This document shows, one piece after another, positions 5,347 to 59,869 of a stretch of DNA of 64,000 nucleotides. The position numbers were made by a program, and so were the translations under genes. The stretch covers positions 12,376 through 76,375 of IMG/VR virus record IMGVR_UViG_3300013105_000005, one strand, 5' to 3'. Every line of letters starts with the position of its first letter. Positions within the stretch are counted from its first letter, which is position 1. The notes under the pieces were generated by a model. That model made no database searches. It was given only the letters and a program-made list of their open reading frames with translations, and was not told where the DNA came from. Source of the stretch: a virus (Duplodnaviria; Caudoviricetes).

Positions 5347-5426
5347 CCGCCCTCGCCCTCCTCGCCCCGCTCATCCGTGTTGCGCCGCGACGGGAAGATT
5401 TACCGGACAAATAAGGAGTTTTGTCA

Positions 5427-6089: not shown

Positions 6090-6099
6090 GCCTTAACCC

Positions 6100-6597
6100 A
6101 TGAGCACCAGCCTTTATCAAACGCCCGGCACGCAAGCGGCGATCACGATCACGCTTGCCTCGCTGGCAACCAGCAGTTCGCTCACCGCCGGGCAGGCGTC
6201 AACCGTCGTCACGCCAAGCAACTGGGCCGATGCGCTGGTGAGTGGCGTCATCGAAACTGGTACCAGTCCGACCGGCGGCGAAATCGACGTGTACGTGTGG
6301 GCGCAGCAGGACGATACGCCGAATTACCCCGACTCGATTACCGGGACCAATGCGGCCAAGTCATTCGCCAGCGCCAACGTGCGCGATGCGGCTTTGGTGC
6401 TGGCGCGGACCATCGCCTGCGATACCACCAGCAATCAGGCATACCAAGTCAAAGCATTCTCCGTGGCCGCGCTATTCAGCGGCGTGCTTCCGAAACGCTG
6501 GGGCATCTGGGTCACACACAGCAGCGGCGTGAATCTCAACAGCACCGGCGCGAATCACGAGCTCGTCGTTCTTCCCTATACGTGGACGCAGGCCTGA
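6100..6597 (+). CDS. Putative virion structural protein (beta-sandwich)
   Basis: T/S/A-rich, beta-strand pattern, lies in the structural operon. Confidence 0.6.
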   Translation: MSTSLYQTPGTQAAITITLASLATSSSLTAGQASTVVTPSNWADALVSGVIETGTSPTGGEIDVYVWAQQDDTPNYPDSITGTNAAKSFASANVRDAALVLARTIACDTTSNQAYQVKAFSVAALFSGVLPKRWGIWVTHSSGVNLNSTGANHELVVLPYTWTQA

Positions 6598-6600
6598 TAA

Positions 6601-10363: not shown

Positions 10364-11101
10364 GTGGCGACAGCTACCCTTACATTCCCAAGCCCCTTCC
10401 CGACTTCGGTCACGCTAACGGCGCTGACCCGTACCGACACCGGCGCGACAGTCTCTGGAAGCGTCACGCCCAACGGCAATGGCGTCTACACCATCAGCGT
10501 CACAGAGCCTGCCGCCGGTCTGGTCTATGCCTTCTCGCTGTCTGTGACGTGGGCCGATGGCAGTACAGCCTTCCCTTCTGGAACGATACAGGGGACCGCA
10601 CCACTCGCTGGCATCTACGGCGACCTGTCAGATATCGACGCAGAGATGGGTGAATTCAATCGCGGCGTTGCCGCTGATCCCGACCAGAGCGGTTCGACTC
10701 AGATCATTACCCAACACGAGCAAAAGGCGATTAACTTTGCCGACGCCTTTATCAACACGCGATTGTCCAACGCTGGCATGCCTACGCCGATGACGACCAA
10801 TCTCGATATTCTGCGCATCATCTTCGGCAAGTTGGGTGCATGGCAGCTTTATCGCATTCGCGGCTTGCAGGACGGCGACAAGGGCGACGACAAATTCGCC
10901 GAAAAATACAACTGGGCTGAGCGAGAGTTGATGCGGCTGATTCGCGCCGCATTCATCAACGGAACGATCGGCAGCACCGGTATTCCGCAGTCAATCGCTC
11001 CGACGGTCGATGTGTACGGCAACCCGCTGGTGACCACGCTTACACCGCTGCCGCGTCAGTTGTTCCCGCTGGGATGGAATGCGTGGGGATTCGCTTGGTA
11101 G
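10364..11101 (+). CDS. Head-tail adaptor (Mu gp36/DUF1320-like) with N-terminal beta-sandwich domain
   Basis: AINFADAFINTRL...LRIIFGKLGAWQLY...KYNWAERELMRL matches the gp36 pattern. Confidence 0.65.
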   Translation: MATATLTFPSPFPTSVTLTALTRTDTGATVSGSVTPNGNGVYTISVTEPAAGLVYAFSLSVTWADGSTAFPSGTIQGTAPLAGIYGDLSDIDAEMGEFNRGVAADPDQSGSTQIITQHEQKAINFADAFINTRLSNAGMPTPMTTNLDILRIIFGKLGAWQLYRIRGLQDGDKGDDKFAEKYNWAERELMRLIRAAFINGTIGSTGIPQSIAPTVDVYGNPLVTTLTPLPRQLFPLGWNAWGFAW

Positions 11102-16455: not shown

Positions 16456-16596
16456 CCGCGCATTCTACCACAACGCGCGTGAGTTTTACGGCTCAAGATG
16501 TTTCCGCTCGGCCAACAGCCAGAAGAAGAATACGACGCAGACAATCAGTCCAAAGATAATCGGTACGTAGTCCATCCTCACATTCTACCACAAGCC

Positions 16597-18711
16597 ATGT
16601 CAATAAAACTCAACACCGCCCTATACCATCGCGCTCTCGGCGCAGCTCATGCCGGAAGCGTCACGCACGACGAGTGGTCCGCGCCGAAGAATCGCACCGC
16701 AGGCAACTCGATTGCCCATGACGAATCACAGAAGGGCAACGCCGACGAGTACGCCTACCCGATCTTCGCTGAGGGCGGGAAGTTGTCGGCCAAGGGTGTC
16801 GGTTCGGCGCTGGCCTACGCGAAGAAGAATAACGCGGCGGCACTGGTTGGTCCGCTGGAGAAGATTAGCGCAGCTATCAAGATGCATTCGATTGCCGCCA
16901 GCGCCGATCCAGTGCTGTCGCTTGACGCACACCGGTACGCCTCAACACAAATCGACATGCCCGAGGAGATTGCGGAGAAGGTCCGCAGCTTCGGCAAGAG
17001 CATCGCGCAGGACGATCTTGACGAGGAGGGCGTTGAGAAAAACCCTCACGTCACGGTTAAGTACGGCCTGCACTCCGATTCTCCGAAGGCGGTGAAAAGT
17101 GCAATCGAAGGTGAAATGCCGGTTCGGTTTGCCTTAGGCACCACGCATTACTTTCCAGCCAATGAAAAGCGGCAAAGCGATGCGTTGGTCGCGCAGGTTC
17201 ACAGTCCCGATCTTCATCGCCTCAATCAGTTAATCGCAGGTGCGGCCCCACACGTTGACACGCATTCCGACTACATGCCTCATGCGACCATCGCATACCT
17301 CAAGCCGGGCCGTGGGGAAAAGTACGCGTATCGACACGACCTGTCCGGCATTGAAGGCATGACCGATACCGTTTCGCACTCCTCCGCTGATGGCAAGCAA
17401 ACCAAAATCAAACTGACCGGGACAACGCGGAACGCCAAGAAGATGGCTCTTTCTGCCGCCATTTTCTCGCTCTCGACTCCCGAGGCAAGGCCCATCCTCA
17501 CGCTGGGCATTGCCTCGCCCAAGGACATCGACGGCCACCCCGTCTACGCCCGCCGCAAGGAAATCGCCCGCGCAGGTCACTACGTGCATCGTGGCCAGAA
17601 AGACTCTGATGGAAACTGGCGCGAGTTCGATATCACCCCAGACCGCATGAGGCTGTGGGCTGATGCCTTCCAGAAGCGCAAGGCCGCTGGCATCCGCCCG
17701 TTCGTCCCCGAGCGCCACGTCGAGAGCGCAGCCGACGCCCGCGCAAACATGGGCTATGTCGATGACCTGCAAATCGAGGGGGATTCGCTCTATGCCACGA
17801 TGCATCTGATTGGCGAGGACGCGCTTGCCGCAGCCGCACGCAATGACGTGAGCATTTACGTTATTGGTGATGCCACTGATGCCAATGGCGAAAAGTACGA
17901 TGAGTGTATCGAGCATGTCTGCCTGACAGCCAACCCGGTAATTCCCAATCTTCAACCCTTTGTGCAGATCGCCGCATCCGCAGACCGCCCGGCGATTTCT
18001 GCGCCTGTCTATGTCCTGGCGGTCGAACCCAACCCCACCGCGGCCCCGAGCCGCAGGAGCTTTAAAATGACAGATGCACTTGCACAACAGGTGCGCGCTA
18101 AGCTCGGCTTTGGTGCCGAGGTGCCCGATGACCAGCTTGACGACAAAGCCGCCGAAAAGGCGCTGGCGTTGTCCGCCGAAGTCCCGACGCTCACTGGCAA
18201 GGTGACAACCTTGACCACCGAGCGCGACGCGCTGGCGACGGAACGCGACACCCTCAAGAGCGAGCTTGCCACGGCCAAGACCAAGGCGGAGGAAGCCAAC
18301 AATAAGGTGCTGCAACTGTCGGCGGATGCGCCGAACACCACCGACCCGCTGGCTATCGCGCTCATTACCCGGTCCTTTAAGACCGATCGCGAGCGCGTCA
18401 TCGAATCCGGCGTTATCAGCGAAGCCGGGATGAAGGAAGTGGACGCGCTGATGTTCAGCGAGGGCAAGCCAACGCGCACGGCGCTGGCGCTTTCCGCCGG
18501 CGGCGTTGACCCGTTCTATTCCCGCCTCTGCGACATCATCCGCCGGAACCCTGGCATCAAGACCAACAACGGCGTGCCGCGCGGTACGACGGAAGCCGAG
18601 CGGCTGGCGCTCGCTGCTGATCCCACCAAGCGGGAAGAGGATAAGGTTGACCCGGTGGCGCTGGCCGAAATGCGCCGCTATGCACACCTCCCCACTCCCG
18701 CCGCCAAGTAA
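16597..18711 (+). CDS. Prohead protease/scaffold (Mu gpI-like) with an embedded 2H phosphoesterase domain
   Basis: PHVTVKYG and PHATIAY (two HxT motifs) at about 16933-17420; protease-like IARAGHY...GYVDDL...HVCLTANPVI at about 17550-17960; C-terminal coiled coil. Confidence 0.8.
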   Translation: MSIKLNTALYHRALGAAHAGSVTHDEWSAPKNRTAGNSIAHDESQKGNADEYAYPIFAEGGKLSAKGVGSALAYAKKNNAAALVGPLEKISAAIKMHSIAASADPVLSLDAHRYASTQIDMPEEIAEKVRSFGKSIAQDDLDEEGVEKNPHVTVKYGLHSDSPKAVKSAIEGEMPVRFALGTTHYFPANEKRQSDALVAQVHSPDLHRLNQLIAGAAPHVDTHSDYMPHATIAYLKPGRGEKYAYRHDLSGIEGMTDTVSHSSADGKQTKIKLTGTTRNAKKMALSAAIFSLSTPEARPILTLGIASPKDIDGHPVYARRKEIARAGHYVHRGQKDSDGNWREFDITPDRMRLWADAFQKRKAAGIRPFVPERHVESAADARANMGYVDDLQIEGDSLYATMHLIGEDALAAAARNDVSIYVIGDATDANGEKYDECIEHVCLTANPVIPNLQPFVQIAASADRPAISAPVYVLAVEPNPTAAPSRRSFKMTDALAQQVRAKLGFGAEVPDDQLDDKAAEKALALSAEVPTLTGKVTTLTTERDALATERDTLKSELATAKTKAEEANNKVLQLSADAPNTTDPLAIALITRSFKTDRERVIESGVISEAGMKEVDALMFSEGKPTRTALALSAGGVDPFYSRLCDIIRRNPGIKTNNGVPRGTTEAERLALAADPTKREEDKVDPVALAEMRRYAHLPTPAAK
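18055..18069 (+). promoter_or_regulatory. Internal in-frame RBS and ATG for a separate scaffolding protein (18067-18711)
   Basis: AGGAG, 7 nt spacer, ATG in frame before the coiled coil; analogous to Mu I/Z. Confidence 0.6.
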
Positions 18712-26125: not shown

Positions 26126-26809
26126 CTAGACACCATCGATCTTGAGGATACGCGAAAACTCCTCTGGCATACTGGCATGCTTTCGACAATTGCAACTGCG
26201 GCAGGAAGGAACGAGATTAGCTACACAGTGCTTTCCCCCTTTGGCGAGCGGAATCTTGTGGTCAACATGCCGAAGTCTGCGCGGCACAGGACGACCGCAC
26301 CAATGGCAAAGGATAACGGATGATTCTCGTACCCAGAGATAGAAATCTGCGATAGACTTGGGATCGCCAACTGTCCGGATTTTTATTCGGCGATGACGAT
26401 TGATGACGTTCAGCAAGAACTTGGCGTAGTTTTTCCGGTACCATTCGCGATGGCGGACCTTTATCTTGTCGGCATGCAATCGCCATTTCTTTAATCCTTG
26501 AAGCCTGTACTTTTCTGGATTCCTCTTTCGGTCTAGTCGTCGCTCACGATTATATTTACCTCTTTCGCGATAGTACCGATCCCGCATGCGTTGTAGTTTT
26601 TGAGGTCGGTTTTCTGCATGCCGTTTTCTCCAATCGGATTTATGCGCATCGTAATATTGCTTGTGTCGTAGCTGAATCACCTCCTTGTTTTTGCGGTACA
26701 TTTTTCGGTGAAGCTTTTGTAAATATCGCTTCCGGTGTGGATCGTTTCTCCGCTTCGCTTCATAGGCTTGGTGATACGCCTTCCGCTTTTCTGGGTCTTT
26801 GTGTGGCAT
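26126..26809 (-). CDS. HNH endonuclease with long basic N-terminus
   Basis: CHWCG...HVDHKIPLAKGG.H...NLVPSCRSCN.RK. Confidence 0.9.
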   Translation of the reverse strand: MPHKDPEKRKAYHQAYEAKRRNDPHRKRYLQKLHRKMYRKNKEVIQLRHKQYYDAHKSDWRKRHAENRPQKLQRMRDRYYRERGKYNRERRLDRKRNPEKYRLQGLKKWRLHADKIKVRHREWYRKNYAKFLLNVINRHRRIKIRTVGDPKSIADFYLWVRESSVILCHWCGRPVPRRLRHVDHKIPLAKGGKHCVANLVPSCRSCNCRKHASMPEEFSRILKIDGV

Positions 26810-26817
26810 AGTGAATC

Positions 26818-27180
26818 TCAAGCTACCAGCAACCCCGCGCATTTCCGGCACAAACCAACGCCCGTACCTTCAGGAATCAGAATCCCAGTCTTGCACTTGA
26901 CGCAGCAGGTGTCGATGTATCCCGCTGGAACGGATGGATGACGCCGTTCCAACTCGGCTTGAGCCTCATCAATCATCACCTGCGGGTTATCGAATGCAGT
27001 CGGTTGCGGATCGGCGATAATCTGCCGGAGAATCTCATCGGTCACGTTGCGGAATCCAGGGTACTTCAGCGGCGGCTCGTTCTGTCCGCACCGCGTCAGT
27101 TCCTCTTGGCGGTCAATCTCGTCGTAAAACGCCTCAAGGTCCAGTTGCTCCAACGACGGAATGGGTGTAAAAGCTGACAT
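26818..27180 (-). CDS. Hypothetical protein with C-terminal Zn ribbon
   Basis: CVKC...CRKC; GGAGG RBS. Confidence 0.55.
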   Translation of the reverse strand: MSAFTPIPSLEQLDLEAFYDEIDRQEELTRCGQNEPPLKYPGFRNVTDEILRQIIADPQPTAFDNPQVMIDEAQAELERRHPSVPAGYIDTCCVKCKTGILIPEGTGVGLCRKCAGLLVA

Positions 27181-27249
27181 GCTTAAGCCTCCGAAATAGG
27201 TTTAGGCCACGCCGTCGGGTGTACCACCACCGCGACGGCATTTCTTTAA

Positions 27250-27330
27250 CTGACGTATATCATACGTAAAATATCTTCGCTTGCAAGCGCAAAATTTTAA
27301 GATTGCACGGAATCTTACGTAAGCTATACT
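27250..27330. promoter_or_regulatory. Divergent sigma70-like promoters with TACGTA-core operators
   Basis: Plus: TTGCAC...TATACT with CTTACGTAAG in the spacer; minus: TTGCAA...TATGAT overlapping TACGTA. Confidence 0.55.
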
Positions 27331-27336
27331 TGTGGC

Positions 27337-27534
27337 ATGCCACGGCCACGAAAACTGGACAGATCGCTCTACACCGCTACGATGCATCGACCACTCTTGG
27401 AGCGGCTTGACCTATTCGCCGAAAGAAACGGGCAGACAAGATCGGCTGCGATTGAAGATGCGGTATCGTGTTACTTGGAGCGGGAAGAGGCTAAGCAAAG
27501 CGGAAACATCAAAAGACGTGTAGCGCGTCAATAG
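27337..27534 (+). CDS. Ribbon-helix-helix (CopG-like) DNA-binding protein
   Basis: LERLDLFAERNGQTRSAAIEDAVSCYL. Confidence 0.75.
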   Translation: MPRPRKLDRSLYTATMHRPLLERLDLFAERNGQTRSAAIEDAVSCYLEREEAKQSGNIKRRVARQ

Positions 27535-27725: not shown

Positions 27726-30164
27726 ATGAGTGCAGCCACCCCAGCAGGTGCCGTCAGCATCGCGTTTCAACCGGAAACCTCAACGGTTGACGCTTACTTA
27801 GAAAATCTGCGCAAAGGCGTAGATGTCCCCCTGCGCGCCAAGTGGATCGGACCCAGCGGAGAACCTACGCCACCAGCTTCGGCGCAAGTATCCACGCCTG
27901 CGCCAACTACCTTTTCTTCGGCGCGTGACAATTACGTTGGTCCTTCTGGCACTGGCTCATTCACCGGCCCAGCGGGATTGGCGTTTACGGCGGGACAAGG
28001 ATTTTCGGTTGAACCGGAATCGCCAGAGGATCGAGCGGCCACCAAAACCATCGGGCCAATTCCGCCGAAGGTTGAGCCATCGCGTGCCGTATTGGACCTC
28101 GGCTCTGCCTTGACCGTAGCCGAGCAAAAAGCGCGTTCCATGAAAGAGGCGGCGGCGGGGCCAATCGACGTTGCCGGCGTAAACGAGTCTTCATCGCACG
28201 AAGGAGTGAGTCTGGCCTCTTCAGTTGGCGCGGTGCCGCCAGCATTGACCGCAGCGGCAGACCGAATGTTGCGCGCTGCAGAGCAGATGGAACGCGCCGC
28301 TGGATTGCAGGAACGATCATCGCAGCGGCGGGAATCTTCTTACACGCCAGAGCAGAGAGAGCAGCAAGTTGTTTCGGCGCGGTTGCAGCGGAGAGCAGCC
28401 CGCGACCTGGGCATCAGCAGCGCGGAAGCAACCGCACTTGGCATTCCCGAATCGGAGAAAGAAGAGGAGGAGGGGGCAGAGCCAATTGCTCGACCGCGTG
28501 GCCGTGGCGGCATGCCGTTCATGCTTCCACGAGGTCCGCGTTCGATATTCGCTCAAGGCGGCAGGGCACTTAGCCGTCGCTTCGGCGGGGCCGGCGCATT
28601 CGCCGCTGCCTATGTGGGCTATGAAGCTTATCAGGGCGCAAATGAACTGGTAACCGAATACAACCAGCGGCGCGTTGCCCAATTGACGGGACAAAATATT
28701 TTTCAGCAGGCCGGAAGAATCCGCGAAGAAGCATCGGACTTGCGTGGTGGGAATCTGGTCAACTTCGGCATCACGCGGAGCATGGAGTTTATCAGCGACC
28801 AGCTTGGATCTGCTGGCGTGAATGCTCCTGAGTTTCTTACCCGCGCCCGTTCCGCCGAAAGTTATTACGCCAGTATTGAACGCGCGGGAGGCGAGCGAGA
28901 TTTCCTGCATGCCAGCCGCCGCGAAGAAGTTTTGCGCAACCGAGCGATCCGCGAGGCTGGTGAGGTCAACCCATTTGCTCGCGAACGCCTGAATATCCAG
29001 ACACAGGCCGTCGAAGCCACGCAAGGCATAAGCGAGCGGTACAACGCTGAATTACTCAAGTACAACGACGTGAACGATCCGCAACAGCGGATGCGTGACG
29101 AACTTGAAAAAGAAAGAGCGGAAGCGCTAAAGCGAAACGATGACTTGTATCAGGCGCGCCTGCGCGGACAGCAACGCGACGAATCCGCCCAATATCGCGC
29201 CCAAGCCTACACCAGCCGGGGCCAGACCATCGCCAATGCCGCCCGATTGCGTGGCGACGTGCAAGGCGCATTATCCGCCGAAGCTTTCGGCGCTTACCAA
29301 TCCTTCCGAGCCACCGAAGCCCAGCGGTACGATCTGACTACACCAGAGGGCAGTCGCGCACGCGATACCGCCCTCGAAAACCTCGCATCGAACTACAACA
29401 CACAGGGCCAGCTTGCGCGGCAATCCGAGCAATCCCAGCGCATCAGCATGGCCGGCGAAAGCGAATCGCTTGGCTTTGCCATTGCCCGCCGTCCGTTGCA
29501 GGCGCAGATTGCCGCGATCCAGTCGCAGACCCAAGCAGCCATCAACGAGGAGCACCGTCCCGAATTTGTGCAGCGGATTTTTGAGGAGGGAGAACAGCGC
29601 AAGCAACTGGCGGCGCAGGAATACAACGACCGCCAGCAGATGCAGCTTTTCTCCCTGCGCTCACAAACTGAACGATTCAATATCGAAGCGGGCCTGACGC
29701 CACAATCGCAGGGCCAGACCTTGCCGACGCGGCGCGTCTTGGAAGAGATTCAGGACATTACTTCAGGCACCGAAGCCGAGCGCCGACTGCTGGTGATTGA
29801 AGGCGCACCGGATGATCTATTGCATGCCAATGCGCAACGCGGACGCGCCCAGCTTGCGGCATTTCGCTCGCGCCTGACCGAATCTCAACGCGGCACCGAG
29901 ATTGACCCCTTCGCACAATCGGCGACGGGCATCGGAACTTTGGATATCGGCAGCATCCAAAAAAGGATTGCGGCGGCGTTCAAAGATGTAAGCCGCGAGG
30001 ATCGCAATCCTGGCGACAACGCGAGTATTTCAAATTCCGGCGGCGCTGGCGCAAACGTCGGGCAAAACGTACAGCAAATTCAGCAGGTTCTGGCGCAAAG
30101 TCTTCAAGTTCAGCAGCAGCTTTACGATCTCTGGCGAGGGCTTGGCCCCGTCGTTTCCGCATAG
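27726..30164 (+). CDS. Tape measure protein
   Basis: 812 aa, helical A/E/Q/R-rich, central hydrophobic patch, follows the chaperone. Confidence 0.75.
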   Translation: MSAATPAGAVSIAFQPETSTVDAYLENLRKGVDVPLRAKWIGPSGEPTPPASAQVSTPAPTTFSSARDNYVGPSGTGSFTGPAGLAFTAGQGFSVEPESPEDRAATKTIGPIPPKVEPSRAVLDLGSALTVAEQKARSMKEAAAGPIDVAGVNESSSHEGVSLASSVGAVPPALTAAADRMLRAAEQMERAAGLQERSSQRRESSYTPEQREQQVVSARLQRRAARDLGISSAEATALGIPESEKEEEEGAEPIARPRGRGGMPFMLPRGPRSIFAQGGRALSRRFGGAGAFAAAYVGYEAYQGANELVTEYNQRRVAQLTGQNIFQQAGRIREEASDLRGGNLVNFGITRSMEFISDQLGSAGVNAPEFLTRARSAESYYASIERAGGERDFLHASRREEVLRNRAIREAGEVNPFARERLNIQTQAVEATQGISERYNAELLKYNDVNDPQQRMRDELEKERAEALKRNDDLYQARLRGQQRDESAQYRAQAYTSRGQTIANAARLRGDVQGALSAEAFGAYQSFRATEAQRYDLTTPEGSRARDTALENLASNYNTQGQLARQSEQSQRISMAGESESLGFAIARRPLQAQIAAIQSQTQAAINEEHRPEFVQRIFEEGEQRKQLAAQEYNDRQQMQLFSLRSQTERFNIEAGLTPQSQGQTLPTRRVLEEIQDITSGTEAERRLLVIEGAPDDLLHANAQRGRAQLAAFRSRLTESQRGTEIDPFAQSATGIGTLDIGSIQKRIAAAFKDVSREDRNPGDNASISNSGGAGANVGQNVQQIQQVLAQSLQVQQQLYDLWRGLGPVVSA

Positions 30165-30191
30165 CCGCGCTCCCTTCACCCAAAAACTAAA

Positions 30192-31082
30192 ATGGCCACA
30201 GCCGTAGCGGACATCGTTCATCCCGCCGCTTACATCGAGCAGCACGTTGAAATCGGCAACGTCGTTTATCAGGCTACGCGCGTGTTCAGCGTTACCGGCC
30301 TTTCGGCAGACGGGCCGGCCAATACGCTGCAATCCCGCGCCCAGCGCACCGCCGGAATCCCGAAAGTTGGCGATGCCCACCCCGATTCGGTGCCCGCGTC
30401 ATTTGGCTGCGTCGTGCGCGGCATTCGTACCCAGCCCATCCCGCAGAGTGATGATGCGTGTTACGTCTATGTGGACTACTGGACGGTCATCCCGCAGTTT
30501 CAAGGCGGCGTCGGCATCATCTCGATAGAGCGCGATACAAATTTGTCCTTTGAGACTGGCGATCGTCACTACGGAAGCGGCCAGCAAATCCTTATCAACC
30601 CGCCGCGAAACAAAGGCGGTACGAAAACGCTGGCCGGCTCGCCTGTCCCTGGCTCTCGCTCGTTTGGCCTGCCACTGCGCCGCATGATCATTCGCGCCGC
30701 AGTAGTGCCGCAGAATCTTGCATCCATCGAAGTGCAGGTTGGCACCGTTAACGGCGACAGCACCTGGTTTGGGCTTCAGCGCGGATACTGGAGATTCGAC
30801 AGCTTCCGTGATGTGTATCAACTCGGCACCGGCAACATCGTCGTTGAAGCGGAATTTTTGACCCGCAATACCCGCAACTGGCACACCTTCACGGTTCGCA
30901 CCAGCGAAATCAACGGGGAGATTATTGCTGTGAATACGCAGGACATGACCGCCGCCATGCAAGCCTCTTACGTCTATGGCATCCAGCAATTTCCTGGCAT
31001 AACGGTTGTCGGGGATTACCCTGCGGTCACCTTTGGACCCGGCGGGTTGTTCGGCATCAGCAAGAATCCATTCCTTCCCTAA
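30192..31082 (+). CDS. Putative distal tail/hub protein
   Basis: Position directly after the tape measure gene. Confidence 0.5.
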   Translation: MATAVADIVHPAAYIEQHVEIGNVVYQATRVFSVTGLSADGPANTLQSRAQRTAGIPKVGDAHPDSVPASFGCVVRGIRTQPIPQSDDACYVYVDYWTVIPQFQGGVGIISIERDTNLSFETGDRHYGSGQQILINPPRNKGGTKTLAGSPVPGSRSFGLPLRRMIIRAAVVPQNLASIEVQVGTVNGDSTWFGLQRGYWRFDSFRDVYQLGTGNIVVEAEFLTRNTRNWHTFTVRTSEINGEIIAVNTQDMTAAMQASYVYGIQQFPGITVVGDYPAVTFGPGGLFGISKNPFLP

Positions 31083-31822
31083 TGGCCGAAGTCTCTCTTA
31101 AATCCCTAACCGATTGGCCTACCGGCAAAAATGTTTTGCCGAAGGGTTCGCACTTGCAGGAGAGCGTCGATGCCCTGCGCGAGATCGCCAACGCCAGCGG
31201 CTATGACCTGCGCCACCACCGCAAGACCATCACCGCCGATTGGAAGCTCGGCAAGATCGTCGCCGCTGGCCCAAACAATGAAGCCGACTACGACGACGAG
31301 CGCTATTGGATAGAGCTGCAAGCCATCTCCGACGCCGACCCCACCGACACGCTGCAAGTCGAGGTAGACGACTCCGAACCGTACGTTGACAACAGCGGAA
31401 ATCCCAAGCCGATCATCACCGCGACAAACCTTTTCGAGTTTCTTGACAGCTCGCACCAACTCGCCACCGATCGCCTCGTTTGGGTGAAAGGAAAACTCGA
31501 CCTCGGCCAGCCGCAGCAAATCCACTGGCAATTCGAGGCAAGCCCGCCGCGCCCATTCTTCGTGGTCCTCGTCACAGACGGCGGTGCCAACGCTGCCACG
31601 CCGACGGGCGTAGCCACCTACACCTATACCGCCAAGACGCCCGACTCCCTTGTGGTCATCGCCACCGGGCTTAGTCCCGTGAATAGCTTCAACCCATCCA
31701 CGAACCGAGAGCAAGGTGTCTTGACTGGCCCGGCGACGTGCGGGGAATTGCGGCGCAATCCAGACGGATCATATTCCATCATCTCCTGCAACGAGCGCCG
31801 CGCCCTGATTCTCTGCCCGTGA
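31082..31822 (+). CDS. Putative tail tip protein
   Basis: Coupled to upstream tail gene. Confidence 0.5.
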   Translation: MAEVSLKSLTDWPTGKNVLPKGSHLQESVDALREIANASGYDLRHHRKTITADWKLGKIVAAGPNNEADYDDERYWIELQAISDADPTDTLQVEVDDSEPYVDNSGNPKPIITATNLFEFLDSSHQLATDRLVWVKGKLDLGQPQQIHWQFEASPPRPFFVVLVTDGGANAATPTGVATYTYTAKTPDSLVVIATGLSPVNSFNPSTNREQGVLTGPATCGELRRNPDGSYSIISCNERRALILCP

Positions 31823-32592
31823 CCGCCTTCCCCTCCATCTACATCCCGCGCCGTCCGCGCATCCTCACTGCCGCCGAGTATGCCGCCAGCAAGCTCCGTC
31901 AGGCCGGCAACGCGGCGCTGGACAAGGCCAAGCGACTTCGCGCCAGCCTCGGCACCCTCATGGCCCAAGGCGGCTTTGCGGGCGCTGGCGGGGAGTACGT
32001 CAATGCTGGCGGTGCGATCGTCGGCGACACGGCGAACTGCGGGGCGTGCCCGTGCGGGAGCGGGAGCGGCGGTTGCCCCGATGGCTGCGCGTTGCCCTTC
32101 GGGTTTCTTTTGACGTTCGCTGGGGGCGACGCAACGGGTGGATGCGATTCGAGCAACACGTTCGCCTACGCCGGCTCGATGGATGGTGTATCGCTATGTG
32201 TCAACGCGCTTGGCACCATCATGGGCGTGGCCGGATGTGACGGAGCGCCATGCTGCTACGCATTTTGTGACGCAGTTCCTTTCTATTTGACGGGATGTGG
32301 ACTTGGTGGGGTCGGCGGAGCCCCGACCGGAAACAACCGTTTCAATTTAGTACTTAGGCGAGTTGTCGGAGGCTGGCGGATCAACTTTTATCCCGGTTGC
32401 AGCGCTTGTATTGGAGCAACTGGCTTCGGACAGTTTTGGTCCGATTGGTCCAGCGTCGATTATTCGATGTTTGTTGCATCGGATTGCACGAGTACTTGCA
32501 CTCTCAGTCTTCCTGCGTTGACATTTGCTCCGACCGACGGTTCGGTTTTGGCGACTGCCGCCACAGTCACGATCACGCCGGGGGGATGCTGA
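31819..32592 (+). CDS. Cys/Gly-rich putative tail tip protein
   Basis: 17 Cys counted in about 257 aa; GTGA overlap start. Confidence 0.55.
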   Translation: MTAFPSIYIPRRPRILTAAEYAASKLRQAGNAALDKAKRLRASLGTLMAQGGFAGAGGEYVNAGGAIVGDTANCGACPCGSGSGGCPDGCALPFGFLLTFAGGDATGGCDSSNTFAYAGSMDGVSLCVNALGTIMGVAGCDGAPCCYAFCDAVPFYLTGCGLGGVGGAPTGNNRFNLVLRRVVGGWRINFYPGCSACIGATGFGQFWSDWSSVDYSMFVASDCTSTCTLSLPALTFAPTDGSVLATAATVTITPGGC

Positions 32593-34085
32593 TGCTTGCC
32601 AAGCCGATTGAGATTTGCCACCACTGCTATCTGCATCAATTCCGCCCCGCCGAATCGAAGATAGTTTGCCTCGCCACGCCCGCCGAAAACAATATCGTCA
32701 CCCAATCCCGCCTCGGCTGCCCCCACGGCCTGCACACCCATCCCCTCCCCCAGCACACCACCCCGCCCGCCGAACTATCCCTTCCCGGCGAATCCGATAC
32801 CGACCGCCTCTTCCGCGCCGCCTGGCGCACCCTTCACCGCCGCCCCGGCACGCTCCCCGAAGACTTCGACCGCGAAGCCGAGCGGCGATGGCTGGCGTTC
32901 CTGCCACTGAACATCCCCAAGAAATGCGGCTGCAAGGTGACGCCCGCCACAGTGATGCAAGCGGCCAAGGTGGGCGCTGCGCGGGCCTGGTGGGCATGGG
33001 CGCTCGAGCAATTCCCCATCGACCTGACTTCGCGGCGGACCTATCACGATTCGCTCTGCCGAATCCACAACGCCAAGAACGCGGAACTGGACAAGCCGCA
33101 ACTGACGCCGGCCCATTCGGCGCGGGTTCATGGATGCCTGCATCTGTTTGACCCGGAAGAAATCGCCGAAGACGTGGAGCAAACCGGGCCTGTCGGCGTG
33201 TACCTCAATGCCGATTGGGGGCTTGGCGATGCAGTGTGCCTTACGGCTTCGCTGAGGGACGCTGCGGCGGCATACCCCTCTGAGTACGAGTTTTTCCTTT
33301 CGACGCCCTATGGTGACGTATTCCGCAATCTGCCGGGGGTCTACGTGGGAACCAAGGCGGCGGGGGAGCGATTGCCAGAGATACGGTCGCGGCTGAACGG
33401 GCCGCACCACGGAGAGATACACCTGATTGACTTCCTGCGCGATAAGCTGTCGGCCATCCTGGGGCGGAAGATCCCGCCGGGACCGCAGAAGCCGCACCTG
33501 GTGCTCGGGCAGGACGAGACGATTTCCCCGCCGGTCGCCGGTCGGTATTGGGTGCTGAGTTGCGGGCATCGCGTCGATATCACCGCGAAAAGCTGGCCGG
33601 CGGAGAACTGGCAGGCCGTCATCAGTGCCCTACCCGACGTGCAATTTGTCCGCGTAGGTCAGACCTGCAAATGGGACGTACAGCCGCCGCTATCGGGCAT
33701 CGCCGCCGACCTGACCGGGAAGACCAGCATCCGCGATCTTATCCGGCTCATCGGACACCCCAACTGCATCGGCGTGCTTGGCGGTGAGTCTTCCGCCATT
33801 CACATTGCCGCTGGATTCGGGAAGCGCATGGTCTGTATTGCCGGCGACAGGATGCTCAAGGCGGCGGTGTGCTATGAAGGGGAAGATTACCTGGGCGACA
33901 ACGGCTTTGCCTGTACCGGATGCGTCAAGTATCGCGTGAAGCCGCTGGCCATCCCCGACGATCAGTGGCCGCACCATGACAGGAGTCTGTGCGTGCTGCC
34001 GTTGGAACGTGGATTCGCGTCCTGCATGGAAGCGGTTAAGCCAGCCGACGTAATTGCCCGTATTGCGAGTGCCCCGCATGGATGA
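32586..34085 (+). CDS. Fusion of Cys-rich N-terminus, ERV/ALR sulfhydryl-oxidase-like domain and family 9 glycosyltransferase
   Basis: W..LH...P..CGC...DL.SR...C..HN..N..L.KP; GLGDAV...KSWP.E.W...DLTGKTSIRDL...SSAIHIAAGFGK. Confidence 0.78.
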   Translation: MLMLAKPIEICHHCYLHQFRPAESKIVCLATPAENNIVTQSRLGCPHGLHTHPLPQHTTPPAELSLPGESDTDRLFRAAWRTLHRRPGTLPEDFDREAERRWLAFLPLNIPKKCGCKVTPATVMQAAKVGAARAWWAWALEQFPIDLTSRRTYHDSLCRIHNAKNAELDKPQLTPAHSARVHGCLHLFDPEEIAEDVEQTGPVGVYLNADWGLGDAVCLTASLRDAAAAYPSEYEFFLSTPYGDVFRNLPGVYVGTKAAGERLPEIRSRLNGPHHGEIHLIDFLRDKLSAILGRKIPPGPQKPHLVLGQDETISPPVAGRYWVLSCGHRVDITAKSWPAENWQAVISALPDVQFVRVGQTCKWDVQPPLSGIAADLTGKTSIRDLIRLIGHPNCIGVLGGESSAIHIAAGFGKRMVCIAGDRMLKAAVCYEGEDYLGDNGFACTGCVKYRVKPLAIPDDQWPHHDRSLCVLPLERGFASCMEAVKPADVIARIASAPHG

Positions 34086-34692
34086 AATTTCAATAGACCC
34101 CGCAGGCGTTCAGATCGTCGAACCTGTCGCACGCGATGGGAACGTATCGGAATCTGAATTGAGGATTCTCTCCAAGCTGGCACAGGGCAGAGAGTCTTTG
34201 TTGGAAATCGGCACATTTGACGGACGCACCACCGTTAATCTCGCCATCCATTGCGCGCCGCATGGTCGCGTATGGACGCTGGACCTTCCCGCTGGGCAGA
34301 CGCCCGTATTTACATCGCACCCCGCAGACCTGAATTACATCCATGCGGAGAAGCCGCCCCGATGGCTGAAGTACCAGGATGCGGCCATGAAGATCACTGC
34401 GCTGGCCGGCGATTCCGCGTCCTACGACTTCGGCACCCTGAGATTCGACTTCATTTTCGTTGACGGCTGCCACGCCGCCGATTGCGTCAGGAGCGACACC
34501 TACCGAATGCTTTCCTTAATTCTTCCGGGCGGCATTTGTCTGTGGCACGATTACGGGGGATGCTTCCGCAGCGTCACGGGCGTTCTGGATGATATGGCCC
34601 GGTTCCTGCCGATGAGGCGCATTGAGGGAACGTCGCTGGTGGTGTACCAGTGCCGCCACAATCCCGATTGGAACGCATTGGCTTCCCCCTGA
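34078..34692 (+). CDS. Class I SAM-dependent methyltransferase (Methyltransf_24-like)
   Basis: LEIGTFDG.T, FDFIFVDG.H, GG...WHDY. Confidence 0.88.
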   Translation: MDEISIDPAGVQIVEPVARDGNVSESELRILSKLAQGRESLLEIGTFDGRTTVNLAIHCAPHGRVWTLDLPAGQTPVFTSHPADLNYIHAEKPPRWLKYQDAAMKITALAGDSASYDFGTLRFDFIFVDGCHAADCVRSDTYRMLSLILPGGICLWHDYGGCFRSVTGVLDDMARFLPMRRIEGTSLVVYQCRHNPDWNALASP

Positions 34693-34845
34693 GCCCCGGA
34701 ATGTCCTCTACGCGATCCACGTACATATGCCCGCACCGCCACGCCGTATCGAACGATGATCGCCACGCGGCAATGTAGCCGTAGCGTCCGACGGCGTAGC
34801 CCAGCGCGAAGCCACGATACTTGATGCCAAGCGGCGTGACGCTTA

Positions 34846-35028
34846 TCACGGGTTCTCCTTCATCTTGAACGACTCCCGCCACTCGACACGCTTCCGCAGC
34901 TCCGCATTCTCCGCGCGCAGGTGGCGGACTTCGACGATGAGCAAGCACGCCTGAAAAGAGTAGGGGTCGCTCTTGCACTGTAGCCGCATTTCCAGTTCCT
35001 CCAGTTCCGCATCGGTCAGGTCCGGCAT
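34846..35028 (-). CDS. Hypothetical coiled-coil protein
   Basis: MPDLTDAELEEL...LRAENAELR; typical small early gene. Confidence 0.5.
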   Translation of the reverse strand: MPDLTDAELEELEMRLQCKSDPYSFQACLLIVEVRHLRAENAELRKRVEWRESFKMKENP

Positions 35029-35465
35029 GGTGACTCCTTCGCGATATAGATTAGTGCGGCGCGACATATCGCCAGTGGTAATGTTTCCCCGTCTAAAACT
35101 TCCCCGCCAAAATCGCAGGCCCAGAAGTTCGGCTCCAACTTGTCGAACTGGATGAACACGGAGTACCCCCTCTTCATCATCGCCTCCACAACGCCGAACG
35201 CCGCGGCTATGTCGCTCGACACCTTCGGCGCTTCCACCCACCCACTGAATGTCCAGTCCTTAAACCTTTCGGACTCGTCAGGCCATCCGGCAAACGGTCC
35301 GTGTGTGCCGTCTTCTACGGACGGATGATTCGGTGGAACCAGCGAGCACGCCTTAGCCTGCTTGTACAGCCACCAGCGCCAGCCGCAGACGTGGACGAGC
35401 ACGCGGGCGTCAAGCTCGCGCCCGGCTGGCATGGCTTCGATTTGGGCGGGGGTGAGGTCGGTCAT
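35016..35465 (-). CDS. Phage hypothetical protein (ABA-sandwich-like)
   Basis: GRELDA.V...SSDIAAAF.VVE...LAICRAAL pattern. Confidence 0.55.
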   Translation of the reverse strand: MTDLTPAQIEAMPAGRELDARVLVHVCGWRWWLYKQAKACSLVPPNHPSVEDGTHGPFAGWPDESERFKDWTFSGWVEAPKVSSDIAAAFGVVEAMMKRGYSVFIQFDKLEPNFWACDFGGEVLDGETLPLAICRAALIYIAKESPCRT

Positions 35466-38038: not shown

Positions 38039-39022
38039 TCAGACGGTTGGCAATCTCCTTTCGGTTTTCACTCTTTCCGCCAGACGCTTTCGCGCTCTGG
38101 CAATCCATGCCCAGTTGATAAGCGGCGCGGCCATCAACTCCGCCAAGAGCCGTGCCATGTCGCCGCCCTTGTTTTTCCACTCGCGCAAATCCTTGTCGGG
38201 CTTCGGCGTCAACATGAATTTGGCTTTCCCGGCTTCCGGCAAGATCGCCTCGGCCAGTTCCACTGCGCCCTCGATGCCCGGCCAGTATGGCGTCCCGTTG
38301 GGCATGTACTTCGTGCGGTCGTTGTCGGCGACCACGATTACGATTTGCTTGGGAAGCTCGTGCAACAGTTCCTTGGCGTACCCAGATCCCGCCTTGTTGC
38401 TCGGGCGCCCGACGGCCATCAGGCCGAAGTCGTAGGCCGTCATGGCGTCGGTCAGACCCTCAGGGAGCATCAGGAGCCAGGGCATCGGATCGTCGCTCAC
38501 TTCGGCGGGAATTGGCTTGGGGTCGTAATCGCCGGGGATGAACAAACCAAGCTGCGAACCGGGCACGCACCATTTCTTGCCGGCACCGTCGCGCAGATGA
38601 ATGCCGATGATATTTCGTTTGCCATCGTACATCGGGAATGACCACGCCCCGCGTTCGGTGTCCCAGCCCACTCCGTACGCTTTCAGTGCCTTGACCGACA
38701 CGCCCAGCGAAGTCGCAAACTTCGTTAGCCGTTGCGGGTTTACCGCCGTCTTGTGCGATTTAAGGATGGATGCGATTTCCGATTTGGTCAGGCGCGCCCG
38801 TTGCGCCTTGGCTTTCAGCTTGTCGGCCTTGCCGGTTTTCGCCGATGAATGCAGGTAGGCTATCGAGCCGTCTTTCTGCTTGATCGGGCGATCTGATATC
38901 GCTCTCATGCACTTGATGATTAGGCCATCCGCCGATGCGGTACACCATCCGCCCTTGTGTCCGCAGGCCGGGCACTCGCCTTTGATTTCGCACCACTTCG
39001 CAGCCGGGGGAGTAATGGTCAT
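38039..39022 (-). CDS. DNA primase (Zn finger plus TOPRIM)
   Basis: CPACGH...WC; PEG.TD; VVADND; KDLREW. Confidence 0.85.
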   Translation of the reverse strand: MTITPPAAKWCEIKGECPACGHKGGWCTASADGLIIKCMRAISDRPIKQKDGSIAYLHSSAKTGKADKLKAKAQRARLTKSEIASILKSHKTAVNPQRLTKFATSLGVSVKALKAYGVGWDTERGAWSFPMYDGKRNIIGIHLRDGAGKKWCVPGSQLGLFIPGDYDPKPIPAEVSDDPMPWLLMLPEGLTDAMTAYDFGLMAVGRPSNKAGSGYAKELLHELPKQIVIVVADNDRTKYMPNGTPYWPGIEGAVELAEAILPEAGKAKFMLTPKPDKDLREWKNKGGDMARLLAELMAAPLINWAWIARARKRLAERVKTERRLPTV

Positions 39023-41748
39023 GCTGCACCTGCAACTTCCTTGGCGCTTTCGATGGCGCGGCTGGCGGCATCGAAGTTCATCAATGAAATGGTTTCGGCT
39101 GAATACCCCAGGTAACGGAGATACTTGGCCTGCCCCGTCGTACAGCGTTCAGACTTAAGCTTTTCGATTACTGCCGATGCTTGGCGCTTGCTGAATGCGC
39201 CGGCGGCTTCACGCTTCACGCCCAGTTTCACCAGCAACTCAACCTGCTTATCACTCGACCCGCCCGACGTGGCGGCGAACTTCCGCGCCGGCCCGATATC
39301 GTGCGGGTCCATCGCGTTAATTTCTGTCATGTCGTAGCTGGTGGTAGCGACCAACGCGGCGCGCCGTGCGGCTTCGGCGTTTCGCTTCTTCGCTTCCTCG
39401 GCAAGCAGTTGCTCGTATTCTTCCTGCTCGCGCATCGCTTTGACTTGGCGCTCTTCGTCAATCTCAAGTTCCGCCTGCTGTAACGCCGCTTCTACATCGA
39501 CGGCTTCCTGCTGCGCCAGCAGCTTGGCCCGCTCGATAACCTGATCGTCGTAGCGTTCATCGCCAAGAATATCGGCGGTCGAAATGAGCTTGTGCCGCCC
39601 GGCGTTGCCGACGAAATCCAAAATCTCACAATTCGAAACTAAGAGACCCTCGACAGTGAAGCGATGGCGGGGTCCGGCGTTAATGATGTCGAATACGCGA
39701 GCTTTCCTTTGTATGGGCCTCGCGGACGGTGATTCCGAATAATCTGCTCGAAAGATATTCCGCGACCGAGAAGTCTCCTCAAGTGATCGTCCGAGAATCC
39801 AGCAAAGGGAAACATCAGTCTGAATCTGTGAATCATTGGAGTGATGCGCTTCCCGCGTTGGTTGTTGCACTGGATGGTCCTTGTGGCCCATCGCAGGTTC
39901 CCAGGCTCGTAGTGCCTGTTGTTGTCGATCCGATCGATTTGCATATTGCGGCGCAGGCCGAGATTTACTTGAATCCAAATTGCCATTTCGAGCGGGGAGG
40001 CGAAGCGAAATTGAATGCCTCTGCCCCCGTAATGCGCAAAAACATCCGAGTTTGGATTCACGCATCGATTCTTCGCCAGATTGCATCGCCGGATTAGCCA
40101 CGGCGGAGCGTTCTGTGGACTGCCGCATTTGCGACACCCCGCAGTATTTTTTTTCAAGCTTTGTATCTCTTTCAGTTCCTCTTTCCCGCAGAACGTGCAT
40201 CTTGTCAGCAGAAATGCGCGGGTCGATTTCCGTACAATGTTTCCGTTCACAACGATCAGCTTCCCGCACCGCCTGCCCTCCCACTCCGGTAACACAGATG
40301 GGAATTTGTTGGGCGGCACACTCCCCAAACGTCTTCCGCATTTTAAGTGGGGACGATTTACCGGTCTGGTCATAGACGTATACCTCGTGGTCGGGAGTTG
40401 CGGTCAATCCCGCGTAATCAATTACCCCTTGTTTGCCACGAAATATACTACCACCACAAGATACAAATTCAATCCCATCCCATACAAGCATCTTGTCTGT
40501 CACGAATTCGATAGGAACCAATCCGACGTTAGTTAAGACTCTTTGTCCCTCAGCGATGCAACTGGGTTTTTGGCTTGATGCGATGAGCGAGCGACGACCG
40601 GATGCTTCGGCGATATCCCCAAGCCGATGCGCAATGGAATCTTGCGGTCGCGTACCACGTCCGGCCATCTGCGCATACAAAGCGCGGCTCTTGGTCGGAC
40701 GAGCCATAACGACAAGCTCGATGCCAGGATCATCGAAGCCTTCGGTAGCCACGCCAACATTAACAAGAATGGAAAATCTGTTTTTTGCGTAGTCCGCGAG
40801 CATGTCCCGGCGAGTCTGCTTGGCGGTTTCGCCGCAGACGAACCGCGCGCACCCGTCCACCCAACGATTGAAGATTTCCGCCAGCCGCTCAGCCTGCGCC
40901 ACCGACACGGTGAACACCAGCGTCTTGCGCATCTTGCGCCCGGCCATCATCGCGGCGAGTTTTTCCTGCCGTTTATCATCGTCCTTCAACGCCGCAAGAG
41001 ATCCCGGTTCAAGATTGGCGGCGCGTTCGATGGTCGCATGGGCGACAGGATGCAGCGACGATTCAAACTCCATGACGGCGGCAAGGTCCGCCTGATTCAA
41101 GTCATTACCAACGGTGCGGCACTTGCTGAAATCCAAGCCAGCCACAGCGACCGAAAACTGTCGAACTGGAACAAGCCAGCCATCGCGGATCGCGGAATGC
41201 AGGTCGTAATTGAAGGCAACAGTATCAAAGACGCTGCCAAGTCCTTCCCCGTCGCCACGATCGCCAGTCGCCGTCACACCCAAAACGCGAAGATCGGGAT
41301 TGGTGCGGAAGTGGTCAACCACTCGCCGGTAACTTGCGGCAACCGAATGATGAGCTTCGTCGATGACCAGCAGCGCGAAGTCGTTGGGATTGAATCGGTG
41401 CATGCGCTTGCCATCGTCCAACGATGCGTTTTGCGTCTGCACTGACGAGATGATGAAGTTTGCCGCCCAGGGCGAATGCTCCGGAAGTGTTGCCCACTGC
41501 GAGGCCATTTCGATATCGACGCCCTCGCCGGTGACGGCCTTGATCTTGTCGGCGGCTTGGTAAATCAGTTCCTCGCGATGCGCCAGTACCAGCACGCGGC
41601 CACGCGATGAAAACTCTTTGGCGACGTGGGCAAACACTACCGTCTTGCCGGTGCCCGTCGGCAAGGTCACGATTGTTGATATGCGCCCGCCAGCAAACTC
41701 ACGATGCACGGCGTCATAGGCGGACTGCTGGTAAGGTCGTAGTTTCAT
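39019..41748 (-). CDS. SF2 DEAD/DEAH helicase precursor containing an intein
   Basis: LRPYQ, PTGTGKT, DEAH, TAT, EGFD, QMAGRGTR; intein at residues 397-706. Confidence 0.93.
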   Translation of the reverse strand: MKLRPYQQSAYDAVHREFAGGRISTIVTLPTGTGKTVVFAHVAKEFSSRGRVLVLAHREELIYQAADKIKAVTGEGVDIEMASQWATLPEHSPWAANFIISSVQTQNASLDDGKRMHRFNPNDFALLVIDEAHHSVAASYRRVVDHFRTNPDLRVLGVTATGDRGDGEGLGSVFDTVAFNYDLHSAIRDGWLVPVRQFSVAVAGLDFSKCRTVGNDLNQADLAAVMEFESSLHPVAHATIERAANLEPGSLAALKDDDKRQEKLAAMMAGRKMRKTLVFTVSVAQAERLAEIFNRWVDGCARFVCGETAKQTRRDMLADYAKNRFSILVNVGVATEGFDDPGIELVVMARPTKSRALYAQMAGRGTRPQDSIAHRLGDIAEASGRRSLIASSQKPSCIAEGQRVLTNVGLVPIEFVTDKMLVWDGIEFVSCGGSIFRGKQGVIDYAGLTATPDHEVYVYDQTGKSSPLKMRKTFGECAAQQIPICVTGVGGQAVREADRCERKHCTEIDPRISADKMHVLRERGTERDTKLEKKYCGVSQMRQSTERSAVANPAMQSGEESMRESKLGCFCALRGQRHSISLRLPARNGNLDSSKSRPAPQYANRSDRQQQALRAWEPAMGHKDHPVQQPTREAHHSNDSQIQTDVSLCWILGRSLEETSRSRNIFRADYSESPSARPIQRKARVFDIINAGPRHRFTVEGLLVSNCEILDFVGNAGRHKLISTADILGDERYDDQVIERAKLLAQQEAVDVEAALQQAELEIDEERQVKAMREQEEYEQLLAEEAKKRNAEAARRAALVATTSYDMTEINAMDPHDIGPARKFAATSGGSSDKQVELLVKLGVKREAAGAFSKRQASAVIEKLKSERCTTGQAKYLRYLGYSAETISLMNFDAASRAIESAKEVAGAA
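39631..40560 (-). mobile_element. Intein (310 aa) in the helicase
   Basis: Block A CIAEGQRVLT, block B LTATPDHEV, block F VFDIINAGPRHRFTV, end VSN followed by extein Cys (CEILDFVGN). Confidence 0.9.
39639..40373 (-). CDS. HNH homing endonuclease encoded in an alternative frame inside the intein
   Basis: RC.NP.....YGGRGI and IDRIDNN.HYEPGNLRWAT...Q.NN.R; GAGGT 8 nt before ATG. Confidence 0.88.
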   Translation of the reverse strand: MTRPVNRPHLKCGRRLGSVPPNKFPSVLPEWEGRRCGKLIVVNGNIVRKSTRAFLLTRCTFCGKEELKEIQSLKKNTAGCRKCGSPQNAPPWLIRRCNLAKNRCVNPNSDVFAHYGGRGIQFRFASPLEMAIWIQVNLGLRRNMQIDRIDNNRHYEPGNLRWATRTIQCNNQRGKRITPMIHRFRLMFPFAGFSDDHLRRLLGRGISFEQIIRNHRPRGPYKGKLAYSTSLTPDPAIASLSRVS

Positions 41749-59665: not shown

Positions 59666-59869
59666 TCGGGTACACAATCGCCAGTCGCCATTCTCGCCCG
59701 CGCCGGGTGCCGCAGTCGTGCGAGTGAGCCAGGAGCGCGGCGCTGGCGAGGCCGCATTCGGACCACTCGGACTCGCCGGTCATTTGTATGTAGGCGCGGG
59801 CACCGGCGGCGCGATAGCTTTCCTCAAGCTCAACGCAATCTGGACCAGCTTTGAACGTCGGTGGCATAA

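Follow-up and report, generated by a model that had tools for sequence, protein, structure and literature searches.

The subject of this analysis is a three-gene cassette at the end of the late operon of a tailed bacteriophage, contained in a window of 64,000 nucleotides (positions 12,376 to 76,375 of the IMG/VR virus record IMGVR_UViG_3300013105_000005; coordinates below are those of the window). Its central gene encodes a protein in which a helical domain with the fold and descent of the Erv/ALR sulfhydryl oxidases is joined to a glycosyltransferase domain of the GT9 type. In this protein and in its closest relatives (P0004, P0005 and P0006; 58-68% identity), which together form the clade discussed here, the cysteine beside the flavin has been replaced by alanine, and a CxC motif is found further upstream on a clade-specific insert. 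The reading that we tentatively favour, giving it slightly under an even chance, is that the cassette would glycosylate and O-methylate the Cys-rich tail-end protein encoded directly upstream, with the remodelled Erv domain docking this client or exchanging thiols with it. The relevant features are as follows.

31819..32592 (+): Cys-rich protein, 257 amino acids with 17 Cys, start codon GTG
32592..34085 (+): Erv-GT9 fusion, 497 amino acids
32592..32723 (+): four-Cys motif at the N-terminus of the fusion (C9, C12, C26 and C43, then Pro)
32796..33131 (+): Erv/ALR-fold domain, residues ~69-180, assigned by profiles, model and structure comparison
32925..32981 (+): remodelled redox site with C112-G-C114, the clade-specific insert of 15-16 residues and Ala130
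33177..34085 (+): GT9-like GT-B glycosyltransferase domain, in which D213 is the candidate base and four Cys form a C-terminal motif
34078..34692 (+): class I S-adenosylmethionine (SAM)-dependent O-methyltransferase, Methyltransf_24, 204 amino acids, accessory

Erv/ALR Descent of the Helical Domain

An original prediction, made from the letters of the window without database searches, had proposed an ERV/ALR-like oxidase fused to GT9 between a Cys-rich gene and a methyltransferase gene at 31819-34692, and the three open reading frames (ORFs) and the quoted motifs were all present. The fusion consists of the N-terminal four-Cys motif, the helical domain at residues ~69-180 and the GT9 domain from residue ~196 on. 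In the JGI annotation it starts two codons upstream of the start used here, and a TTG start at 32397 was rejected, as it would overlap the Cys-rich gene and homologues begin at ATG. The identical protein of 497 amino acids is also recorded in Logan and ENA contigs, so an assembly error is unlikely and an assembly artefact was rejected.

The helical domain carries the motif residues W78 (32823), H82 (32835), C112/C114 (32925/32931), H159 (33066) and P169 (33096). Tested in isolation, it matched the Pfam family Evr1_Alr (PF04777) with E 0.0035 and 18.1 bits, below the curated cut-off of 27.6, a family that was matched by 30/30 of the phage-type relatives tested. A hidden Markov model (HMM) built from 34 phage-type Erv domains, with the query excluded, scored it at 45.9 bits, compared with at most 11.3 bits for 2000 shuffled sequences and 1.2 bits for the reversed sequence, and a chance motif was rejected on these grounds. 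Comparison of profile with profile gave a probability of 98% (E 6e-14). The domain was modelled with a predicted local distance difference test (pLDDT) of 93 and a predicted template modelling score of 0.85, and superimposed on pB119L of African swine fever virus (ASFV; 3GWL) with a VIA Z of 12.5 and a root mean square deviation of 1.8 over 99 residues. The top six rows of this comparison were all Erv, with unrelated rows at Z <=4.3, and in Foldseek ranks 1-24 were all Erv/ALR. Since Erv relatives made up the alignment behind the model, it is biased in this direction; the sequence tests concur independently. A search of the ESM Atlas with the domain returned nothing. Among 1.8 billion representatives searched, the domain was connected to P0009, a protein with a clear Evr1_Alr domain containing CxxC, followed by GT9 and then by a GT34-like domain. 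Residues 69-180 are of Erv/ALR fold and descent, and in this point the profile scores, the helical-bundle model and the structure comparison all bear the original prediction out.

The N-terminal four-Cys pattern is common to P0004, P0005, P0009 and a stand-alone phage Erv at L089; it possibly represents shuttle disulfides or a metal site, and model confidence in this region is low. The stand-alone Erv of L089 (L089:1241-4195) belongs to a provirus, and a sigma-54 gene just downstream of it is probably host DNA.

A Remodelled Redox Site

The second cysteine of the CxxC motif of Erv proteins lies in the first turn of helix 3 and contacts the flavin. A CxxC next to flavin adenine dinucleotide (FAD) is the signature of the family, which is defined by a common fold, the binding of the cofactor and the cysteines of the active site (PMC3509050). 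In the window fusion, helix 3 of the model begins at A129, and no second redox cysteine was found at this place beside the flavin. The distance from the last redox cysteine to the histidine of helix 4 is 26-32 residues in 90/94 viral Ervs and 45 in the fusion, in which the residue 29 positions before this histidine is Ala130. The FAD-proximal column of the alignment holds Ala in all four clade members, compared with Cys in 55/55 other Erv rows. When the helix-3 pattern was scored over the 14 residues following an anchor, Ala130 gave 5.5 to 9.2 and C114 gave -5.6 to -18.6 in 4/4 proteins. The CxC that had been predicted in place of CxxC does exist, but it is located 15-16 residues upstream of the CxxC site, and the site itself holds Ala.

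CxC and the insert of 15-16 residues are common to all four members of the clade. CxC alone was rejected as a sign of decay, as it is the majority state among phage Ervs (26 CxC, 7 CxxC and 1 CX6C among 34), and simple decay is also opposed by the invariance of CxC and of the insert end within the clade. In the flavin pocket of the fusion, W78, H82, H159, N160, N163, L166, K168 and P169 are kept, and in its helix 4 the Trp position is occupied by Ser and the Val position by Lys. Across the clade helix 4 has drifted: among positions that do not vary in other Ervs, Val is Lys in 4/4, N160 is Asp in 3/4 and N163 is Cys in 2/4; K168 is Val in 2/4. The ratio of nonsynonymous to synonymous substitutions (dN/dS), estimated from one pair with dS >1, was ~0.37 for the Erv domain, 0.21 for GT9 and 0.24 for the N-terminus; the value for the Erv domain likewise speaks against simple decay.

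In the tree, the clade was recovered with a support of 100/95 and placed beside P0009 at 97/92, with long branches and unsettled bootstrap. As this nearest outgroup is an Erv-GT9 fusion with intact CxxC, the fusion would predate the remodelling, and the ancestor was likely an Erv-GT9 fusion with intact CxxC. The remodelled domain may have lost oxidase activity. No further Erv or thioredoxin was found in the phage genome, a finding that again opposes simple decay. More clade members were found neither in viral, metagenome and genome contigs nor in GenBank phages, and four metagenome pattern matches were rejected as unrelated.

The fusions P0004, P0005 and P0006 are each preceded by a gene of 245-292 amino acids without a family. 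At L002:9607-11777, the orthologous fusion and the methyltransferase are broken by several frameshifts, probably read errors, with the motifs spread across frames. Another apparent pseudo-enzyme is a giant-virus-type Erv without any cysteine at L032:8709-9119.

The Cysteine-Rich Gene and the Phage Erv Family

With 17 Cys in 257 amino acids, the protein encoded before the fusion differs strongly from 19 other late genes with 0.46% Cys (binomial p 1e-14) and also from a generic background of 1.5% (binomial p 5e-7). It received no assignment in Pfam, PHROG, NCBIfam or ESM Atlas. Thus, of the tail-tip gene with 17 Cys that had been proposed, the cysteines were confirmed, and the tail-tip label reflects gene order, with no family match; by its position, the protein would belong to the tail. 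The genes preceding the fusion in L001 and L002, the two relatives' loci for which DNA is available, encode 15 and 11 Cys, respectively, and are weakly homologous to it (hhalign E 5e-5). An HMM of the Cys-rich neighbours at other phage Erv loci did not recognise the window protein, so these neighbours are not one detectable family.

A pattern that describes the helix-4 motif at the DNA level fetched 120 viral loci, 34 of which are phage-type Ervs. Most of them follow a gene with 13-39 Cys, and the typical order is a long gene free of Cys, a gene of ~290 amino acids, a short gene, the Cys-rich gene and the Erv, the same as in the window. In raw counts, a Cys-rich neighbour was present for 23/32 phage-type and 0/25 giant-virus-type Ervs, a contrast that is partly circular, since loci were sorted by eye, and inflated by kinship. 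Clustered at 50%, 7/13 clusters were clear cases, or 9/13 if a borderline case and a downstream one are counted in, which agrees with the co-occurrence of phage Ervs and Cys-rich genes at tail-module ends that had been anticipated. Fusion to a glycosyltransferase recurs (P0009; possibly L009), yet most phage Ervs stand alone.

The fusions of the window and of L001/L002 are 62-68% identical as proteins and 68-71% identical in the DNA of the fusion region. In contrast, the tape-measure gene and the two genes following it have no detectable homology between the window and L001/L002, while L001 and L002 share 52% identity in their tape measures. The DNA match between the three loci does not reach into the fast-evolving Cys-rich gene. 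That the Cys-rich gene and the fusion are homologous and the upstream tail genes are not suggests that the two were exchanged jointly from one tail module to another and that they cooperate. The protein on which the cassette acts, as acceptor and client, is likely the Cys-rich one.

Several further observations were made at these loci. A phage Erv with a CGC motif at L009:10368-11483 has a C-terminal domain bearing a DxD-like motif, without a Pfam match at E 0.01, that is possibly a GT-A glycosyltransferase. At L129:5638-8235 (same record as L042), the CX6C Erv is followed, not preceded, by an extremely Cys-rich gene of 639 amino acids. A calcineurin-like metallophosphoesterase lies directly after the Erv at L009:11414-12493, L010:319-1347, L023:6995-7939, L063:7184-8212 and L118:4044-5075.

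Glycosyltransferase and Methyltransferase

The C-terminal domain of the fusion matched PF01075 (GT9) with 24.6 bits, above the cut-off of 22 (E 1.8e-5). The full-length model, made from an alignment of four sequences, was poor (pLDDT 44) and was used for the GT-B call only; with it, Foldseek ranked WaaC, TibC and 3tov first (E 6e-6 for WaaC and TibC), and VIA returned GT-B folds at Z ~8-11. Invariant columns in the clade are G212-D213, K333, H404, C441, C444, C467 and C478. D213 was aligned with the N-terminal Gly-Asp motif of WaaC, in which the equivalent Asp is presumably catalytic, and the GT9 motifs look intact in the sequence. The predicted GT9 fusion is in line with these results; the transfer of heptose that had been attached to it is not established, as the NCBIfam heptosyltransferase scores lie far under the cut-offs. 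Lipopolysaccharide (LPS) heptosyltransferase models reach about 1/10 of their cut-offs (TIGR02195: 14.6 bits compared with 134.6), so the profiles single out neither a donor sugar nor an acceptor.

The predicted SAM methyltransferase after the fusion was confirmed by a match to Methyltransf_24 over profile positions 1-105 of 105 (E 1.8e-11), and weak PDB matches of the protein are O-methyltransferases. L002 has an orthologue (70%) after its fusion, and L001 has none. The enzyme may act on the transferred sugar. DNA glycosylation was rejected as a role of the cassette, in view of the late tail operon and of a search, not exhaustive, in which no supporting neighbour was seen.

Proposed Function and Alternative Explanations

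The favoured reading starts from what is observed: the gene order, the folds and their ancestry, the exchange of Cys for Ala at the proximal site and the recurrence of the module. From these we infer the tail location, the acceptor, the sugar, the methyl acceptor, the loss of oxidase activity and the docking role. Late in infection, the fusion would bind the Cys-rich protein via its Erv-derived N-terminal half, the ancestor of which may have been an oxidase of such Cys-rich clients. The GT9 domain would then move a sugar from a host nucleotide-sugar onto hydroxyls of the Cys-rich protein or of virion proteins near it, and in loci that have the methyltransferase this enzyme would cap that sugar by O-methylation. 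The Erv domain would serve to dock the client, whose thiols it may hold or shuffle, but would not be a self-sufficient FAD/O2 oxidase; disulfides of the client could arise in the absence of a phage oxidase, through contact with air once the cell has lysed or via host enzymes. As fold and CxC are kept and the flavin-proximal cysteine is lost, docking is the most likely role of the domain. According to the original prediction, the phage may oxidise, glycosylate and methylate its own virion proteins. An Erv-derived domain, a GT9 domain and a methyltransferase are present, but the oxidation is weakened by Ala130 in 4/4 clade members and by the drift of helix 4.

Several points weigh against this explanation. 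CxC is invariant and W78, H82, H159, L166 and P169 are retained, which would be compatible with oxidase activity, and part of the helix-4 conservation among the compared Ervs follows from their selection, as the loci were fetched with that motif. The clade has four members only, one frameshifted and one without DNA, and dN/dS rests on one pair with dS above 1. No GT9 was found in four viral records with stand-alone Ervs (three of them fragments), so the link to glycosyltransferases is not general. The Cys-rich protein contains only 15% Ser+Thr and is thus not Ser/Thr-rich, and other late proteins with 21-26% Ser+Thr are alternative acceptors.

A rival that we regard as less probable, although it keeps a real share, refines the original prediction: the oxidase would be active and its site re-routed, with the C112-G-C114 loop folding back over the small residues Gly-Ala-Ala where helix 3 begins, so as to reach the flavin. 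The four-Cys motif of the N-terminus would then act as a shuttle, and one polypeptide would oxidise and glycosylate the Cys-rich tail protein. CxC and Gly-Ala-Ala are invariant in all four clade members, CxC is the usual phage Erv motif (26/34), and hhalign aligns both CxC motifs and places the insert after them. The CxC loop is modelled at a confidence of ~89, the CX6C of L042 is evidence that the spacing can widen, the Erv domain is under purifying selection, and the genome is without a second Erv or thioredoxin, though the client retains 11-17 Cys. However, the proximal position is Ala in 4/4 and Cys in 55/55, the drift in the helix-4 pocket differs among close relatives, and the cysteines of the active site, beside fold and cofactor binding, belong to the definition of an Erv (PMC3509050). 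The complete form of this scheme, in which a single enzyme would make disulfides with the loop CxC replacing the helix-3 cysteine and glycosylate the same Cys-rich protein, with the methyltransferase capping the sugar, appears rather unlikely.

A structural vestige is improbable. It would reduce the Erv domain to a remnant, with GT9 and the methyltransferase decorating head or tail proteins that are rich in Ser/Thr and have their genes elsewhere, and with the Cys-rich protein binding metals or oxidising itself, out of contact with the fusion. Phage disulfides can arise spontaneously or through host enzymes (PMC13576161), and glycosylation of the Che8 type is cited as targeting the capsid protein (PMC11256854, PMC13445384). 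In the window, several late proteins contain 21-26% Ser+Thr, and dN/dS of the Erv domain is the highest of the three parts of the fusion. However, this ratio is still well under 1, the CxC and insert motif is invariant, and the Cys-rich gene stays immediately before the fusion behind unrelated tail genes.

Accessory genes are often located at the end of the structural module. The position of the cassette at such an end, the integrase of the phage and the action of the GT9 relatives WaaC/WaaF on LPS speak for lysogenic conversion, with GT9 and the methyltransferase altering the host LPS core or another surface glycan and so blocking superinfection, as had been proposed as an alternative, but this explanation has little in its favour and is the least probable, as the cassette is bound to the tail operon by overlapping stop/start codons, a search of 30000-35200 showed no sigma-70-like promoter (weak evidence), the LPS heptosyltransferase model scores ~1/10 of the cut-offs, and the Erv fusion and its fixed Cys-rich neighbour are left unexplained.

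Phage and Late Operon

The virus record of 76,375 bases has direct terminal repeats and is rated complete. Its gene set includes a terminase large subunit, a major head protein, a neck protein, an integrase and a weak match to a major tail protein, and by this content the source of the window is a temperate tailed phage. The 812-amino-acid tape-measure gene is followed by genes for 296 and 246 amino acids and by the three coupled ORFs (31819-32592, 32592-34085 and 34078-34692), which are consecutive with overlapping stop and start codons and close the late operon; afterwards the strand switches. The genes upstream of the cassette are as follows.

27726..30164 (+): putative tape-measure protein, 812 amino acids with 0 Cys, named for its size, composition and position after a tail tube-like gene
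30192..31082 (+): putative distal-tail protein, 296 amino acids, named for its position after the tape measure
31082..31822 (+): putative tail-end protein, 246 amino acids, with a stop codon that overlaps the Cys-rich gene's start

Neither the putative tape measure nor the 296-amino-acid protein had a family match, and the 246-amino-acid protein had no reliable one. No homology to the equivalents in L001/L002 was detectable for either the 296- or the 246-amino-acid protein. Between a tail chaperone-like gene and the tape measure, a minus-strand gene of 120 amino acids with its flanks (26818-27433) is common to the window and L001/L002 (65% protein, 71-78% DNA), with unrelated tail genes around it.

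Elsewhere in the window, a block of Ser/Thr-rich ORFs ahead of the terminase (3709-11101, +), including a protein of 977 amino acids and a LamG protein (6601-7443, E 5e-21), possibly encodes decoration or fibre proteins and thus alternative glycan acceptors. A putative protease/scaffold ORF at 16498-18711 (+) has a 2H phosphoesterase domain (2_5_RNA_ligase2, E 1e-7) and a scaffold-like coil and also matches Acb1 (E 0.0015, below cut-off). By eye, an HNH-like ORF lies on the opposite strand within the tail operon (26126-26851, -). A helicase ORF at 39019-41748 (-) carries an intein-like insert, and a HNH-like ORF of 244 amino acids overlaps it in another frame (39639-40373, -). The ORF at 58724-59677 (-) has a tandem repeat of ~nine codons, visible in an alternative frame.

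Implications

The gathered loci reveal a family of phage Ervs, mostly with CxC, which lie beside Cys-rich genes of tail modules and, in some instances, form fusions with glycosyltransferases. To this family the window adds a clade without the flavin-proximal cysteine in which the domain is still under selection. If the oxidase were active, its site would represent a new geometry, undescribed for Erv enzymes in the literature searched. If it is a pseudo-enzyme, a virion glycosyltransferase would have taken over an Erv domain for its targeting, and if a single enzyme performs both reactions, a bacteriophage would encode a maturation line resembling the secretory pathway in the bacterial cytoplasm. 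Compact cytoplasmic oxidases are useful for recombinant disulfide formation. P0009 with CxxC, a stand-alone Erv with CxC and a member of the window clade provide three small soluble domains with which the question is testable in E. coli.

Comparison with Known Systems

PF04777 has been recorded in few bacterial groups, including Pirellula, without study (PMC10598087), and according to a paper from 2026, no thiol-oxidoreductase machinery has been described in phages (PMC13576161). A published report of phage Ervs was not found in a literature search that had most subscription journals outside its scope.

The best sequence-profile matches of the C-terminal domain are the GT9 enzymes WaaC/WaaF/WaaQ (E ~1e-3, with the N-terminal Gly-Asp aligned); unlike these, the fusion scores far under the equivalog cut-offs, lies in a phage late operon and is fused to an Erv domain. 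In the mycobacteriophage Che8, virion proteins have been proposed as substrates of phage-encoded glycosyltransferases (Freeman et al. 2023, as cited in PMC11256854 and PMC13445384), which resembles the role proposed here. In those citing accounts, the reported target is the capsid protein and no Erv-like domain is involved, whereas the predicted GT9-like enzyme of the window is encoded beside a Cys-rich tail-end gene.

The protein heptosyltransferases of the BAHT type, TibC/AAH (PMC4358343), likewise combine a GT-B domain of the GT9 type and a candidate Asp base with a C-terminal four-Cys motif at the position of the iron finger, and their genes also lie beside that of the presumed acceptor. 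In TibC, the iron-finger cysteines 339/342/358/370 are located in the C-lobe (PMC4358343); the cysteines 441/444/467/478 of the fusion have a similar but not equal spacing, and this motif also occurs in the cellular GT9-like proteins P0007/P0008. The autotransporter heptosyltransferase model did not match the GT9 domain of the fusion, and in place of the N-terminal beta-barrel of ~97 residues in TibC/AAH the fusion has the Cys motif and the helical Erv domain.

With the Erv/ALR oxidases (PF04777: ASFV pB119L 3GWL, mimivirus R596, yeast Erv1/Erv2 and human ALR) the fusion shares the helical-bundle fold, Trp/His of helix 1 and His/Leu/Pro of helix 4. Its ancestry and its late-gene setting beside a Cys-rich structural protein recall the viral Ervs that ASFV, poxviruses and mimivirus encode, and its additional flanking Cys cluster recalls the shuttle-bearing Ervs. 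In known Ervs, CxC is a shuttle motif and not the flavin-proximal pair (PMC3509050). The fusion differs from all of these in that it is encoded by a tailed phage, joined to GT9 and under the Pfam cut-off, and in that it has no CxxC but a CxC on an insert of 15-16 residues and Ala at the FAD-proximal position.

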